This document shows, piece after piece, positions 2,240-62,288 of a DNA stretch of 64,000 nt. Below the pieces are notes generated by a model. The model made no database searches. It saw only the letters and a program-made list of their open reading frames with translations, and was not told the DNA's origin. This DNA comes from Roseburia sp. CAG:303 (GTDB lineage: Bacteria > Bacillota > Clostridia > Lachnospirales > Lachnospiraceae), in contig FR900145.1 in the NCBI GenBank assembly GCA_000437755.1, forward strand, positions 50,242 to 114,241, read 5' to 3'. Numbering within the stretch: the stretch's first letter is position 1; the number at the start of each line of letters is the position of its first letter. The position numbers were made by a program, and so were the translations under genes.

Positions 2240-3385
2240 ATGAATGATATAGCAATGAACGAAGAGAAAATATTTTTGGAAAGCCTGGAACAACTGGTAG
2301 AACTTGCGAAATCAAAAAAGAATATGCTTGAAATTTCGGACATTGACAAATTTTTAAAAGATAAAAGTATTAGTGCGGAACATATAGATTTGATCTATCA
2401 GTATCTGGAGGAGAAAAAGATAGATGTAGTTCCGAATACGGAAGAAGCTTTTTTGGAAGAAGATGATCTTCTTTTAGAGCCTACCGATGATGATTTTGAA
2501 GATGAAGAGAATATTGATTTAGATGCTATAAATCTTCTGGAAGGGATCGGAACGGAAGATCCGGTCAGAATGTATTTGAAAGAAATTGGTACTGTACCTC
2601 TTTTATCTGCGGATGAAGAGTTACGTCTTGCCAGAGAAAAAGCAGAAGGCGGACCAAGAGGACAGAGAGCGAAAGAAAAACTCATAGAGGCCAATTTACG
2701 ACTGGTAGTAAGTATTGCAAAGCGTTATACAGGAAGAGGTATGAGTTTTCTGGATCTTGTCCAGGAAGGAAACCTGGGACTGATCAAAGGGGTTGAGAAA
2801 TTTGATCCGGATAAGGGATTCAAACTCAGTACTTATGCAACATGGTGGATTCGCCAGTCCGTTACAAGGGCACTTGCCGATCAGGCACGTACGATCCGTG
2901 TACCGGTGCATATGGTGGAAACCATCAACAGAATGTCCAAGATGCAGAGAAAGCTGACATTGGAGCTGGGATACGAACCGTCCACGGCAGAACTGGCCAA
3001 TGCACTGGATATGCCGGAAGAAAAAGTACTTGAGATTATGCAGATTGCAAGAGAACCAGCTTCTCTGGAAACACCTATCGGTGAAGAGGATGATTCCAAT
3101 CTGGGAGATTTTGTTGCAGATAACAATACAGTCACACCGGAACAGAATGTGGAATCCGTTATGCTGAGAGAACATATAGATATCCTGCTGCAGGATTTAA
3201 AAGACAGGGAAAAACAGGTTATTGTACTGCGGTTCGGACTGGAAGACGGGCATCCGAGAACATTGGAAGAAGTAGGTAAGGAATTCAATGTTACAAGAGA
3301 AAGAATACGCCAGATTGAAGCAAAGGCATTGCGGAAATTAAGAAATCCGGTTAGAAGTAAAAAGATTAAGGACTTCCTCATGTAG
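2240..3385 (+). CDS. sigA: RNA polymerase sigma-70 factor SigA/RpoD
   Basis: Regions 1.1 to 4 recognisable: acidic N-terminus, ...[16 protein letters not shown]..., [14 protein letters not shown], and [27 protein letters not shown] at the C-terminus. Confidence 0.95.
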
Positions 3386-3407
3386 GAGGTCCTTTTCCAG
3401 TTTATTA

Positions 3408-3610
3408 GGTAATTGCGAAACACTTAAATTTTTGTAAATGCATATGCAAATGAAACATTACCACGAAGGCACGCTCTCGCTACATTCGGCTGGTAGCGGT
3501 ACTAAGATGCTAAAATACAGCATCTAAGTGCCGACCGCCTCATAGTACCTTCTTAGTAATTGTTTGATTTGCATATACAATAAAGATAAACTATGAGTTT
3601 CGCAATTACC
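3408..3610. repeat. structured intergenic element bounded by 14-bp inverted repeats (ggtaattgcgaaac / gtttcgcaattacc) with inner 18-bp IRs and a three-hairpin core; flanked by about 48-bp direct repeats (3391-3438 and 3609-3665)
   Basis: Direct reading of sequence; see findings. Confidence 0.5.
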
Positions 3611-3685
3611 TTTTCCAGTTTATAATAAAAAGGAGTAATTGCAAAACACTTAAATATTTATAAAAGACTGCAAAAGGAGATTAAA

Positions 3686-6385
3686 ATGAAAGAATACAGC
3701 ATAAAGTTCCATGATAACCGTCTGGTGGATACGGATGGTCTGAATGTGGAGCAGATAAGTGACCATTCATACCGCATCAGCATTGCTGACGGAAGATATA
3801 ATGTCAGGGTTCTGGATGGGGATTTGAATGACAGAGGGGATGTGAATGTGTATACAACCTTAAACCACGTCCGTCAGAATCCGATCTGGGCGGGGGATAA
3901 GGTGATACGTTCCGGGTGTTATAAGACCGAAGTAAAAAACGGATGCATGGAAATCAGTTTCTCCGGAAAATATGTATGTATACAGGGGATTGATATTGCG
4001 GCAGAGATTGAGGACGAGATCGAATCGCTTTCTGCCGGGGTTCATGCATCGGAAGAAAAATCCTCGGTCAGATTATTCATCCGGAGAAACACGCAGTATG
4101 AAAAGGTTCATTTATACAGGAAAAAGTGTGGAAGCGGAATGGATCCGGAGATGATTGAACTGTGCGGGGAAGAATATGTGGATGAAGATGTCCTGCTGTG
4201 TGAAAGCTACGAATATTATGCCTGCATTGTGGACAACCTTGGATTCGAGGGAAAGATTTCGGATAAAATAACCGTAGAGATAGCAGATAAAACGGCCGCA
4301 AAACCGGAGATAAAAAACTATACGGTAAAAACAGTGAATGAGCATACCACGAAGCTGACCTGGGAGGGAAAAGCATGGAAATACCGCATTTACCGGAAAA
4401 CAGCAGTCAGTAACTACAAATTTCTGGGAGAAACAGAGAACTGTAGTTTTACAGATGAAACCATGATTACCGATCGGAGTTATATTTATGCGGTACAGGC
4501 TCTTTCAACCGGCGGAAAAAGCAGACGGAAAGAAGCAGAGTCACAGATTTTTGCGCCACTTCGCAGGCGGCAGATGGAACAGCTTGACAGAGGTGCTGTG
4601 GCGATACGCACAAGGCGGGGAATGTATCTGACCTTCCGGCTCGCCGCCTGGGAATATGAAACGGCGGAGTTTCATATTTATGCGGACGGAAAACGGATTG
4701 CACAGATTGGAAAACACGATGCAACGAATTATCTGGATAAAAAAGGCGATCTCCATACCCGGTATGAGATAAAGAAGGTTACGAACGGAAAAGAAGAAGA
4801 ACATGGATACATTGCAAAGAATCTGGCACATAACTATTTCGATTTGCCGATAAACAAACCGGCGGATTACAAAGCTCCGGATGGAGCGATCTATTCCTAT
4901 ACGGCAAATGATGCAAGTGTCGCAGATCTTGACGGAGATGGCGAGTACGAACTGATTTTGAAGTGGGACTGTGCAGGACGGGATAATTCCCATGCGGGAT
5001 ATTCCGGGCCGGTATTTCTCGATGCCTATAAACTGGATGGACGTATGCTGTGGAGAATCGATCTTGGAAGAAATATCCGGGCAGGAGCACATTATACCCA
5101 GTTCATGGTATATGATTTTGATGGGGACGGATATGCGGAAATGATCGTAAAGACGGCAGACGGAACCAGAGATGCCGCTGGAAATTATGTCGGGGACAAG
5201 ACAAAAGATTACCGCAACCGGGAAGGATTCATTATCGAAGGACCAGAGTATCTGTCTTTGTTTGATGGAAGATACGGAACCCTGCTGGACACCATTCCAT
5301 ACGACCCGCCGCGTGGCAATATTGCCGATTGGGGTGACTCCTGGGGCAATCGTGTGGATCGCTTCCTCGCCTGCGTGGCATATCTTGACGGCATACATCC
5401 GAGCGCGGTTATGTGCCGCGGTTACTACGATCACGGCAGACCGGCACATCTGGCAGCCTGGGATGTAAAAGATAAAAAATTAGTAAAACGCTGGAAATTT
5501 GAGGCAAATCACAAGCAGAACATCGAGTATACCAACCAGGGCTTCCATAACCTGGCGGTGGCCGATGTGGACGATGACGGCTGTGACGAGATTATCTACG
5601 GAGCATGTGTCATTGACCATGACGGAACCGGGCTGTATTCGACCGATCTGGGACACGGAGATGCCATGCATGTGGGTAAATTCACGAAAGACTCACCGGG
5701 ATTCGATTACTTTGGAATCCATGAAGATGCGGACTGCCCGTGGGGCATCGAGGCACACGATGCAGGAACCGGAAAACACCGGTTTGGGATTCGTACCGGA
5801 AAAGATACCGCAAGAGGGCTGACTGCCAAAATTGATCCGAGGTATGATGGAAACCAGATGTGGGCATACTATGGCGGTGGGTTATATAATTATGCGGACG
5901 GAAAGAAAATCACGGATACATTTCCGGAGCAGGTGAATTTTGCCATCTGGTGGGACGGCGATCTGCTGAGGGAACTTCTGGATCATGACTGGTATGGCTA
6001 TGAAACGGGAGTTGGAATTCCGAAGATTTACAAGTGGAACTGGAGAACGGAGGAAACAGAAATCCTGCTTTCCACCGATCAGGTGCTATCCAATAACGGA
6101 ACAAAAGGAAACCCGTGTATTCAGGCATGTCTGTTCGGGGATTGGCGGGAAGAAGCTGTATTCCGTGGAAAAAACAGTGAATTTCTGAGGATTTATACCA
6201 CAACCGAACCGACAAAGTGCAGAATCTATACCCTGATGCATGATGCGGTTTACCGCATGGGGATTGCATGGCAGAATACGGCATACAACCAGCCGCCGCA
6301 GACAGGTTTCTATATCGGCCCGGATATGAAAGGAATCAAAGTTCCGCCGCAGGATTATATCAGCCCGGCAAAAATGGGAGAATAA
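3686..6385 (+). CDS. polysaccharide lyase family 11 (rhamnogalacturonan endolyase YesW/YesX-like) with N-terminal FN3-like region; no signal peptide
   Basis: Beta-propeller Ca-site motifs VADLDGDGEYELILKWD, VYDFDGDGYAEMIVKTADG, VADVDDDGCDEIIYGACVIDHDG; DWGDSWGNRVDRFLACVAYLDG; LFGDWREEAVFR. Confidence 0.6.
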   Translation: MKEYSIKFHDNRLVDTDGLNVEQISDHSYRISIADGRYNVRVLDGDLNDRGDVNVYTTLNHVRQNPIWAGDKVIRSGCYKTEVKNGCMEISFSGKYVCIQGIDIAAEIEDEIESLSAGVHASEEKSSVRLFIRRNTQYEKVHLYRKKCGSGMDPEMIELCGEEYVDEDVLLCESYEYYACIVDNLGFEGKISDKITVEIADKTAAKPEIKNYTVKTVNEHTTKLTWEGKAWKYRIYRKTAVSNYKFLGETENCSFTDETMITDRSYIYAVQALSTGGKSRRKEAESQIFAPLRRRQMEQLDRGAVAIRTRRGMYLTFRLAAWEYETAEFHIYADGKRIAQIGKHDATNYLDKKGDLHTRYEIKKVTNGKEEEHGYIAKNLAHNYFDLPINKPADYKAPDGAIYSYTANDASVADLDGDGEYELILKWDCAGRDNSHAGYSGPVFLDAYKLDGRMLWRIDLGRNIRAGAHYTQFMVYDFDGDGYAEMIVKTADGTRDAAGNYVGDKTKDYRNREGFIIEGPEYLSLFDGRYGTLLDTIPYDPPRGNIADWGDSWGNRVDRFLACVAYLDGIHPSAVMCRGYYDHGRPAHLAAWDVKDKKLVKRWKFEANHKQNIEYTNQGFHNLAVADVDDDGCDEIIYGACVIDHDGTGLYSTDLGHGDAMHVGKFTKDSPGFDYFGIHEDADCPWGIEAHDAGTGKHRFGIRTGKDTARGLTAKIDPRYDGNQMWAYYGGGLYNYADGKKITDTFPEQVNFAIWWDGDLLRELLDHDWYGYETGVGIPKIYKWNWRTEETEILLSTDQVLSNNGTKGNPCIQACLFGDWREEAVFRGKNSEFLRIYTTTEPTKCRIYTLMHDAVYRMGIAWQNTAYNQPPQTGFYIGPDMKGIKVPPQDYISPAKMGE

Positions 6386-39908: not shown

Positions 39909-40033
39909 GGTGTAAAATCCTTTCTCAAAATAAAATGTAAAAACCTTTCAAAACTATTATTTTCCAATCTTAAAATTTTATACAAAAATCGTATAAGAAA
40001 AAAAATATGAACCATAATTTAAAAGACCATGGA

Positions 40034-40089
40034 TAATTGCGAAATGCTTAATTTATAAATATATATGCAAATTATGAATTTCGCAATTA
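40034..40089. promoter_or_regulatory. 12-bp perfect inverted repeat TAATTGCGAAAT / ATTTCGCAATTA with 32-bp spacer in the spoVA/PBP divergent region
   Basis: Read directly. Related copies GAATTGCgaaGCAATTC (40182-40198) and AATTGCGAAAA (40224-40234). The same half-site occurs at 3409-3421, 3597-3609 and 3637-3647. Confidence 0.5.
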
Positions 40090-40252
40090 TTAAAGATTAT
40101 GGTGCAGAAGCCAAAAAATAGAATTAATGCTTTAAAAACCGCGATGAATTTGGTATAATAATATGATGCCAGATGTTTGCGGAATTGCGAAGCAATTCGT
40201 AATTGTTCTGGGTTAAATGACAGAATTGCGAAAAGCAGGAAAGGATATAAAC

Positions 40253-47185: not shown

Positions 47186-47257
47186 TTCCGGAAATCCGGT
47201 ATAAAGTCTTGACAAAGGTATCTAATAGTGCTAACATAAATTTAATTAAAGAATAGA

Positions 47258-47440
47258 AATAGAGGTTGCATTTTTTAAGAGTAATATCCCGGATGTGGGC
47301 AGTGCAGAAGAAAGGATAAGAAAGGGAAAAATGCCGAAGGGATCAGATTTTCCTGCCGTTTTGTATCCCTGGGCATGCAGTGAAGAACTGTATGACTGTC
47401 ATCTGATGGGAAATCCCTGGATGGAGAGCTATGAACATTT
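47258..47440 (+). promoter_or_regulatory. lysine riboswitch (L-box) leader of dapA-dapB
   Basis: atAGAGGTTGCa..., GAAAGGG, TGCCGAAGGG, aACTGTatgACTGTCA, TGGAGAGCTAT in canonical order. Confidence 0.7.
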
Positions 47441-62112: not shown

Positions 62113-62185
62113 GGGATCTTAGCTCAGCTGGGAGAGCATCTGCCTTACAAGCAGAGGGTCATAGGTTCGAGCCCTATAGGTCCCA
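62113..62185 (+). tRNA. tRNA-Val (anticodon TAC)
   Basis: Cloverleaf gggatct...agctcagctgggagagc...ctgccTTACAaggcag...ggttcgagccc...aggtccca; no encoded CCA. Confidence 0.85.
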
Positions 62186-62214: not shown

Positions 62215-62288
62215 GGCTAAGTAGCTCAGTTGGCTAGAGCACGCGGTTCATACCCGCGGTGTCAGGGGTTCGAATCCCTTCTTAGCCA
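62215..62288 (+). tRNA. tRNA-Met (anticodon CAT; elongator Met or tRNA-Ile2 lysidine type)
   Basis: ggctaag tagctcagttggctagagc acgcggTTCATAcccgcg...ggttcgaatccc cttagcc a. Confidence 0.85.

Follow-up and report, generated by a model that had tools for sequence, protein, structure and literature searches.

What kind of element occupies the spacer between sigA and the PL11 gene of Roseburia sp. CAG:303? We examined this locus within a 64,000-nucleotide stretch of contig FR900145.1 (the window; all coordinates count from its first nucleotide), in which a ~300-bp spacer dense in direct and inverted repeats separates sigA (2240-3385) from PL11 (ATG at 3686). A first-pass annotation of these repeats had proposed a small RNA with duplicated promoter-like flanks, an insertion resembling a miniature inverted-repeat transposable element (MITE), or a complex operator. 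We conclude with high confidence that positions 3406-3612 are a non-autonomous transposable element, a 207-bp foldback MITE that interrupts an originally 82-bp spacer separating PL11 from the sigA terminator. The MITE-like option is supported by an allele that lacks the insertion, by duplication of the target, by the many copies, and by a partner insertion sequence (IS) with the same ends.

Alleles, copies and a partner insertion sequence

To compare alleles, we located the sigA protein (2240-3385) on thousands of human-gut contigs and examined ten places (loci are denoted L) that encode the identical protein. Six of the ten (L001-L006) carry the same ~300-bp spacer as the window. One, L009, is empty: its 82-bp spacer reads GAGGTCCTTTTCCAGTTTAT|AATAAAAAGGAGTAATTGCAAAAC... 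and equals the window minus 3406-3623, with one copy of TTCCAGTTTAT kept. The empty allele, set against the filled ones, therefore identifies the feature as a ~207-bp insertion with an 11-12-bp target duplication. L007 and L010 hold an additional 49-nt hairpin within the core of the element. In L008 the element is present and then followed by a different right flank, which is the flank of the copy at L162 (ABC-F ATPase and NusG-like genes; L008 4146-4500 against L162 at ~1466); this arrangement reflects either recombination between copies or a chimeric scaffold. Three contigs with an identical PL11 protein stop inside the element. The host name Roseburia sp. CAG:303 is attached to the identical sigA and PL11 proteins (CDE52728.1 and CDE52729.1).

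The MITE (3406-3612, + strand) runs from TAGGTAATTGCGAAAC to GTTTCGCAATTACCTT and shares 95-98% identity with copies at 24 other sites. With its trailing base included, its ends read TAGGTAATTGCGAAAC ... GTTTCGCAATTACCT(T), and it is flanked by the 11-12-bp target-site duplication TTCCAGTTTAT. As read from the filled and empty alleles, the left copy of this duplication occupies 3395-3405 (11 bp, or 12 if 3394 is included) and the right copy 3613-3623; the identity reaches 15 bp (3391-3405) because the MITE's own CCT(T) end happens to match the target. The left terminal inverted repeat, TAGGTAATTGCGAAAC, lies at 3406-3421 and the right one, GTTTCGCAATTACCTT, at 3597-3612 (both + strand), where canonical copies end (A/C)CTA. 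A repeat scan extended these ends into two 51-nt foldback arms (3407-3457 and 3561-3611, + strand) that are 78% complementary. The left arm holds a sub-terminal TATGCAAAT box (3443-3451), conserved across subfamilies, and the right arm holds a ATTTGCATA box (3567-3575). Both inverted repeats of the first-pass annotation lie where it had placed them, the outer 14-bp pair exact and embedded in the arms and the inner 18-bp pair matching at 16 of 18 positions. The inverted repeats that it listed are thus the two foldback arms, and its GC-richer core is a passenger module. Observed motif counts were matched by 0 of 100 shuffles, and the 300-nt region folds much more stably than its shuffles on both strands (z = -8.7 and -9.7). 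In the folding model the whole MITE is one extended foldback. The MITE has no coding capacity, its longest internal open reading frames (ORFs) being 29 and 21 aa; the 29-aa frame (3438-3527) was considered as a small peptide gene and dropped, as it has no ribosome-binding site and is not conserved.

The 48-bp direct repeat with an 11-bp insertion, also reported in the first-pass annotation, is present in two parts of different origin. The first, CCTTTTCCAGTTTAT, is identical at 3391-3405 and 3609-3623 (15/15), and the second, GTAATTGCGAAACACTTAAATTTTTGTAAA, matches at 27 of 30 positions between 3409-3438 and 3635-3664; between the parts, the right copy has the 11-nt AATAAAAAGGA where the left copy has TAG. 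The first 15 bp are target duplication together with its overlap with the element end, and the other 30 bp are an older arm-like relic, so the supposed duplicated promoter-like flanks are not supported. This degenerate left-arm-like sequence (GGAGTAATTGCAAAACACTTAAATATTTATAAAAGACTGCAAAAGG..., 3632-3680, + strand, from the repeat scan) also occurs in the empty allele and is therefore older than the present insertion; most simply, it is the relic of an older copy. In L007 the left copy of the direct repeat also has AATAAAAAGGA, a pattern that would fit gene conversion between the two direct repeats. A further likeness, between GCAAATGAAACATTAC in the MITE (3446-3461) and TAAAATGAAAGAATAC at the PL11 start codon (3681-3697), amounts to 72% over 29 nt and could belong to the older arm relic or simply be fortuitous.

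The insertion at PL11 belongs to a large family. A metagenome scan returned at least 120 loci, nearly all from human gut; among those listed, complete copies number 37 and occupy 31 sites, and another 87 are solo arms. Some 60 of the listed solo arms sit no more than 130 nt from the end of a contig, as expected of a repeat that breaks assemblies. Counted by distinct right-end flanks, at least 70 different insertion sites occur in metagenomes of the human gut, which accords with many copies at unrelated loci of one genome. Identity among copies at 25 sites is 94-100% (median 97%), and several metagenome contigs carry two or three copies. All complete copies listed have TAGG-TAATTGCGAAAC ... GTTTCGCAATTA-(A/C)CTA ends, and each is flanked by its own A/T-rich 10-12-bp direct repeat (31 other sites). 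One copy, L136, is an insertion into an older copy, and the genes adjoining copies differ between loci. Extrapolating from these contigs, this gut Roseburia would carry tens of near-identical copies. A scan of reference genomes, one per species, with the pattern TAATTGCGAAA-N15-30-TATGCAAAT yielded genuine relatives only in Lachnospiraceae: full-size relatives with a homologous core (L014, L021/L061, L036, L039, L046 and L057) and mini relatives (L053, L059 and L049).

A 1.75-kb IS with the same 16-bp end as the MITE encodes a 485-aa transposase with a DUF772 domain and a putative DDE domain. A paired-end search among the MITE loci for an autonomous copy, with ends 0.6-5 kb apart, returned only the degenerate copy at L094, where the MITE is followed by 11 bp and then by a degenerate 1448-bp element with ends TAGGTGTTTGCGAAAC ... 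GTTTCGCAATTACCTA and a truncated ORF bearing a DUF772 transposase domain. This transposase has more than 5000 homologues; the intact ones are 485 aa long and sit mostly on 2-kb contigs, as expected of a collapsed multi-copy IS. The intact ~1.75-kb IS was recovered with flanks at L207, L208, L216 and L226. Its left end is TAGGCGTTTGCGAAAC and its right end TAGGTAATTGCGAAAC, so that the left terminal inverted repeat of the MITE is identical at 16 of 16 positions to the IS right end (IRR) at these four loci. Clean duplications flank the IS at L216 (11 bp) and L226 (12 bp). MITE and IS are alike over the terminal 16-17 nt only, and their interiors are unrelated. In the transposase, PF05598 (DUF772) is clear (E = 1e-14), PF01609 and PF13751 (DDE_Tnp_1 and DDE_Tnp_1_6) are weak, with scores under their cut-offs, and the IS1182 model of NCBIfam, NF033551, gives 81.7 bits, below its cut-off of 270. 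By these domain scores the partner IS appears distantly IS1182-like, and we do not file it as a member of the IS1182 family. In the mechanism that we propose, the 485-aa transposase would mobilise the MITE in trans, with staggered cuts 11 bp apart.

Target choice at ribosome-binding sites

To characterize where the family inserts, we oriented the copies by their core and searched the distinct flanks, out to 150 nt, for a ribosome-binding site together with the start codon of an ORF that points away from the element and spans 60 codons or more. This signal is present in 55 of 70 right-arm flanks and 8 of 44 left-arm flanks. The spacing is narrow: in 49 of the 70 right-end flanks, 26-37 nt separate the element end from the start codon, a test passed by 1.5-1.7% of random positions on the same contigs (binomial p ~1e-70), and ribosome-binding-site pentamers form a sharp peak at flank positions 17-20. 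The IS has the same habit, with GGAG starting 20-21 nt from its left end in 7 of 7 copies with flanks. By sequence reading, the spacing also holds in divergent subfamilies of other species (L039, L053, L057, L059 and L066).

Tandem arrays point to repeated use of one target. At L218 (244-2190+) a MITE and two IS copies stand in the order MITE-IS-IS, each separated by TTATTTTATTT; further arrays occur at L221 (332-2088+, IS-IS) and L094 (1-1518, MITE-IS), and the spacers are exactly one 11-bp target copy. Because a single 11-mer is shared between tandem elements, the same target was hit repeatedly. The family is strongly site- and orientation-selective, inserting ~20 nt upstream of ribosome-binding sites.

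The copy in the window sits at a decoy. A Shine-Dalgarno-like sequence, AAAAAGGAG (3627-3635, + strand), places its GGAG exactly 20 nt past the element end, the preferred spacing of the family. This sequence precedes only a 4-codon TTG frame and is not the ribosome-binding site of PL11, which is the GGAG at 3675-3678 ahead of the ATG at 3686. That a decoy was used at this locus argues that DNA sequence is read, rather than that selection at the level of the gene makes the pattern. We envisage that the transposition complex would read its target asymmetrically, as an A/T-rich 11-mer with a GGAG ~9 bp downstream of its edge, and that the transposase itself would recognize the GGAG. Insertions would thus land ~20 nt upstream of ribosome-binding sites, with the MITE right arm (equivalent to the IS left end) facing the gene.

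The conserved core and competing explanations

Between the arms lies a core that is conserved as a structure. The minimum-free-energy fold and covariation among 39 distinct copies agree on a long irregular hairpin, P1-P4-P3 (3465-3552, + strand throughout). Its basal helix, P1, pairs 3465-3469 and 3471-3472 with 3545-3546 and 3548-3552, and is followed by a conserved 15-nt asymmetric loop, GCTCTCGCTACATTC (3473-3487). P4, seen in both the single-sequence fold and the covariation, pairs 3488-3490 and 3492-3494 with 3534-3539. Beyond an AG bulge (3495-3496), the 14-bp P3 pairs 3497-3503 and 3505-3511 with 3519-3525 and 3527-3533; it contains a conserved A.A mismatch (3504/3526) within CUAAG/CUAAG and is capped by a frequently conserved loop, AAAATAC (AAAAUAC in RNA; 3512-3518).

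To evaluate these helices, we built a covariance model from five divergent copies and aligned 58 matches, of which 39 are distinct. In the model structure 92% of cells pair, versus 24-42% with slid partners, and 12 core pairs have changed on both sides. In a shuffle test the observed value was reached by no shuffle on four of five measures and by 2 of 500 on the fifth. All six pairs of P4 show compensatory changes, even though the alignment was not fitted to P4. The covariation check proposed at the outset therefore supports P1, P4 and the 14-bp P3, while the three-way junction drawn in the first-pass annotation (ggcac/gtgcc and cgctac/gtagcg) is not conserved as such. Its cgctac/gtagcg helix, P2, is conserved in sequence, shows no covariation, and is mutually exclusive with P4. 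As judged from these alignments, Lachnospiraceae have conserved the core through compensatory changes, and this passenger module has no relation to the IS. The core shows G-U mismatches as often as A-C mismatches (25 and 22), so that RNA of either strand and DNA are not separable as the level of function; a DNA palindrome whose arms are kept alike by repair would give the same parity.

The core also varies by insertion and replacement. A 49-nt hairpin, ATGGCACTAGGGAATCTTCCCGGTTTACCGGGTCCCTCCCTAGTGCGTG, sits at the P4 bulge in L007 (4249-4297), L010, L105, L120, L123, L136, L142 and L185. Among the loci collected it occurs only inside MITE copies, and one of its strands has an CCUCCUUAG-like sequence resembling an anti-Shine-Dalgarno. 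In a 221-bp type, a related hairpin, GTACTAAGGAATCTTCCC...GGGTCCCTCCTTAGTAC, takes the place of P3; P3 differs again in L166, and the core has been lost from one 148-bp type.

Might the element be first of all a functional structured RNA, a leader, small RNA or riboswitch-like switch that controls or protects the downstream mRNA, with the MITE as its carrier and the core turning into the 5' leader once it has inserted in sense ahead of a ribosome-binding site? We consider this improbable, though less so than the other rivals. Its core keeps compensatory changes across distant Lachnospiraceae subfamilies, together with invariant unpaired GCUCUCGCUAC, GYAGCGG, CUAAG, loop AAAAUAC and CCGAC; conserved CGCUAC could pair with GUAGCG as P2 in competition with P4, which would allow a two-state switch; the interior is unrelated to the IS; and copies show a strong bias toward the sense orientation of the downstream gene at a fixed distance from its ribosome-binding site. 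Against it, the IS, which has no core, has the same targeting, and the window copy stands at a decoy ribosome-binding site. Core-less copies persist (the 148-bp type and the mini copies), cores in other species face the gene in either orientation, and the parity of G-U and A-C gives no strand signature of RNA selection. The downstream genes are functionally unrelated, which also led us to reject a riboswitch of one gene class. Rfam 15 at gathering scores, run over the whole window, gave no match in the element, and permissive scans gave chance-level matches only (window region, maximum E 10; seven divergent copies, maximum E 5), in agreement with the first-pass remark that no classic riboswitch core is recognizable.

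Regulation by DNA-level switching or by transcription factors fares worse. A phase-variable inverton, in which a recombinase would flip the segment between the inverted repeats and turn PL11 on or off, has in its favor the perfect 14-bp repeats around ~175 bp just upstream of a gene, the contigs that break inside the element, and the variation of core orientation between species. We regard it as extremely improbable: all nine of nine assemblies with PL11 downstream have the same orientation or are empty, with none inverted, L008 has the same orientation too, and the duplications, the dozens of copies at unrelated sites and the transposase-bearing partner explain both the repeats and the contig breaks. 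A composite operator, with TAATTGCGAAAC and ATGCAAAT as transcription-factor sites regulating PL11 and other genes, is little better placed and in our view very unlikely. It could draw on the enrichment of AATTGCGAA in the window (6 occurrences against 1.2 expected), on the recurrence of the motif upstream of a penicillin-binding protein (PBP) gene at 40183 and 40224, and on its invariance across genera. The repeated TAATTGCGAAAC motif is instead a transposon terminus, that of a mobile element for which both target duplications and an unoccupied site are known, and the same 16-mer terminates a transposase-encoding IS; moreover, the half-sites lie 35-190 bp apart and the neighboring genes are unrelated. 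The first-pass operator option is accordingly not supported. Motifs of KdgR, CodY, Fur, the Cheo box, Spo0A and sigma-54/ECF type were compared by eye with consensus sequences, and none fits.

We return to the foldback MITE, against which several observations also weigh. No transposition event was directly observed, and the 64-kb window contains no transposase gene. The partner IS does not match in every respect: its left end, TAGGCGTTTGCGAAAC, is unlike the left end of the MITE, both of whose ends are of the IS right-end type, and a clean duplication is absent from three examined IS copies (L094, L207 and L208). The terminal bases of the window copy are CCTT where canonical copies have CCTA, and the length of its duplication is ambiguous, at 11, 12 or 15 bp. 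Per-genome copy number is an extrapolation from metagenome contigs rather than a count in a closed genome. Lastly, a covarying core with invariant unpaired nucleotides exceeds the needs of a plain MITE and leaves room for function.

What that function might be is a separate question from mobility. The likeliest roles would be at the level of the transcript, where the core might serve as a leader hairpin or a processing site and so preserve expression of the gene downstream; it may instead be a DNA palindrome whose symmetry is maintained by repair. A bolder proposal, which we hold only tentatively and think more likely wrong than right by a wide measure, is that IS and MITE home to Shine-Dalgarno sites and that the core is a portable cis-acting RNA device (a switch, processing site or insulator). 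If so, the core becomes the 5' leader of any gene behind it and dozens of genes are rewired, in a manner that varies by strain in an abundant human-gut Lachnospiraceae.

Related systems and locus context

Our search of the literature on the terminal sequence, on Lachnospiraceae MITEs and on targeting of ribosome-binding sites found nothing relevant. In Roseburia sp. CAG:303 and relatives, the element represents a previously undescribed MITE belonging to an IS1182-like IS, and it goes beyond an ordinary MITE in its oriented insertion ~20 nt upstream of ribosome-binding-site motifs and in its covarying passenger core. We know of no IS that places itself, oriented, ~20 bp upstream of ribosome-binding sites.

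In general form the element resembles MIC231 of Bacillus cereus, a bacterial MITE derived from the DDE insertion sequence IS231. Like that pair, it is short, non-coding and multi-copy, has terminal inverted repeats in common with an autonomous IS and an interior unrelated to its parent, and combines a pronounced target preference with duplications that, at 10-12 bp, match the IS231 group. Its ends, however, bear no resemblance to those of IS231, and the partner transposase carries a DUF772 N-terminus and has its closest match in IS1182 rather than in IS4. The target here is set by the distance to GGAG, whereas IS231A is reported to use a GGG(N)5CCC-type site.

Correia elements of Neisseria, ERIC/IRU, RUP and BOX offer a second comparison. 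These repeats can alter the expression of neighboring genes and mediate rearrangements, and they share with our element a foldback, MITE-like build of ~100-200 bp, a location in intergenic regions that are often transcribed, and size variants that arise by internal insertion or deletion. Their sequences are unrelated, and no Rfam family matches the MITE. Correia elements make a TA duplication and have no known active partner, whereas the duplications here are 10-12 bp and the ends are unrelated to the Correia consensus. To our knowledge, none of these repeats has been reported to home at a fixed distance from ribosome-binding sites.

Targeting at a fixed distance recalls Tn7 at attTn7, which also inserts in one orientation, at a fixed distance from a recognized sequence, and leaves the motif undisrupted. 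Tn7 relies on a dedicated selector, TnsD, that directs it to a single site in each genome, and it duplicates 5 bp of target, whereas the present system is a single-ORF IS that addresses a short motif found before most genes. The nearest family for the partner is IS1182 (IS1182, IS1272), its best NCBIfam match, with which it shares the DUF772 N-terminus and a size of ~1.7 kb and 485 aa; its C-terminal region matches DDE_Tnp_1 and DDE_Tnp_1_6 weakly, below their cut-offs. Within that family, IS1272 is reported to insert into inverted repeats without target duplication (PMC5678879). The partner IS differs in making 11-12-bp duplications beside ribosome-binding sites.

These properties have practical consequences. 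The repeat family explains assembly breaks in a very common gut bacterium, as well as the different right flank of one scaffold, and it can mislead synteny analysis. Its target choice puts a 207-nt hairpin between the promoter and coding sequence of many genes while leaving the genes intact, and the presence or absence of copies among strains, as at the PL11 pectin-lyase locus, is a plausible source of strain-level differences in expression. A transposase that consists of one protein and follows a simple, asymmetric rule over a short target would also be of interest as a genetic tool.

At the locus itself, a terminator-like hairpin of sigA (3370-3398, + strand; stem 3370-3378/3384-3392, then TTTT) would lie outside the mobile element. 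The sigA stop codon, TAG (3383-3385), straddles its loop and 3' arm, and a consensus scan did not call it because its T-run is only four T. At the other end of the MITE, the only sigma-70-like site called within 3200-3800 is a predicted promoter-like site, TTCGCA-16-TATAAT (3599-3626, + strand), which matches the consensus at 10 of 12 positions; its -35 lies in the MITE end and its -10 spans the duplication and flank. No such site was called in the empty allele. Judged by this match, the site could give PL11 an extra promoter, at this locus only; a family-wide hybrid promoter, with the -35 TTCGCA in the element end and the -10 in the target, was rejected, as 72 flanks show no -10 peak at the needed position. 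The downstream protein itself (3686-6385, 899 aa) is named 'lipolytic protein G-D-S-L family' in its record (CDE52729.1), whereas Pfam assigns it RGI_lyase and RGL11_C. On these domains the public name looks wrong, and the protein appears to be a rhamnogalacturonan lyase of PL11.

The window holds a second, miniature and older member of the family, ~63 bp long (40030-40092), between spoVAA and a class A PBP gene. It reads (G)GATAATTGCGAAAT, the TATGCAAAT box and ATTTCGCAATTAT, without a core, and the 11-bp duplication on either side of it has decayed, to AAAGA(CC/TT)ATGG. The same locus appears in L152, and L053 and L059 are comparable mini copies. The region upstream of the class A PBP gene contains two more AATTGCGAA motifs (40183-40191 and 40224-40232), one inside a perfect palindrome, GAATTGC-GAA-GCAATTC, and the other 12 nt before a ribosome-binding site (GAATTGCGAAAAGCAGGAAAGGA). 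Both could derive from older insertions, as solo-end relics; the window has 6 AATTGCGAA motifs where 1.2 are expected.

Among other replicons, a plasmid search for the element gave no match, two IMG/VR pattern scans gave coding-sequence coincidences only, and BLAST against a phage collection gave only three partial core matches, on unverified human-faecal "Bacteriophage sp." contigs carrying bacterial genes. On one such contig from human faeces, L065, two diverged core-bearing copies (1499-1635, +, and 1879-2015, -) lie 240 bp apart and have a much longer P3, of ~25 bp. The phage label is doubtful because the sister contigs L066 and L067 have ordinary bacterial gene starts beside their copies. 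Elsewhere in the window, the whole-window Rfam scan identified a lysine riboswitch (47252-47439, 107 bits) and two tRNA genes (62113-62185 and 62215-62288).

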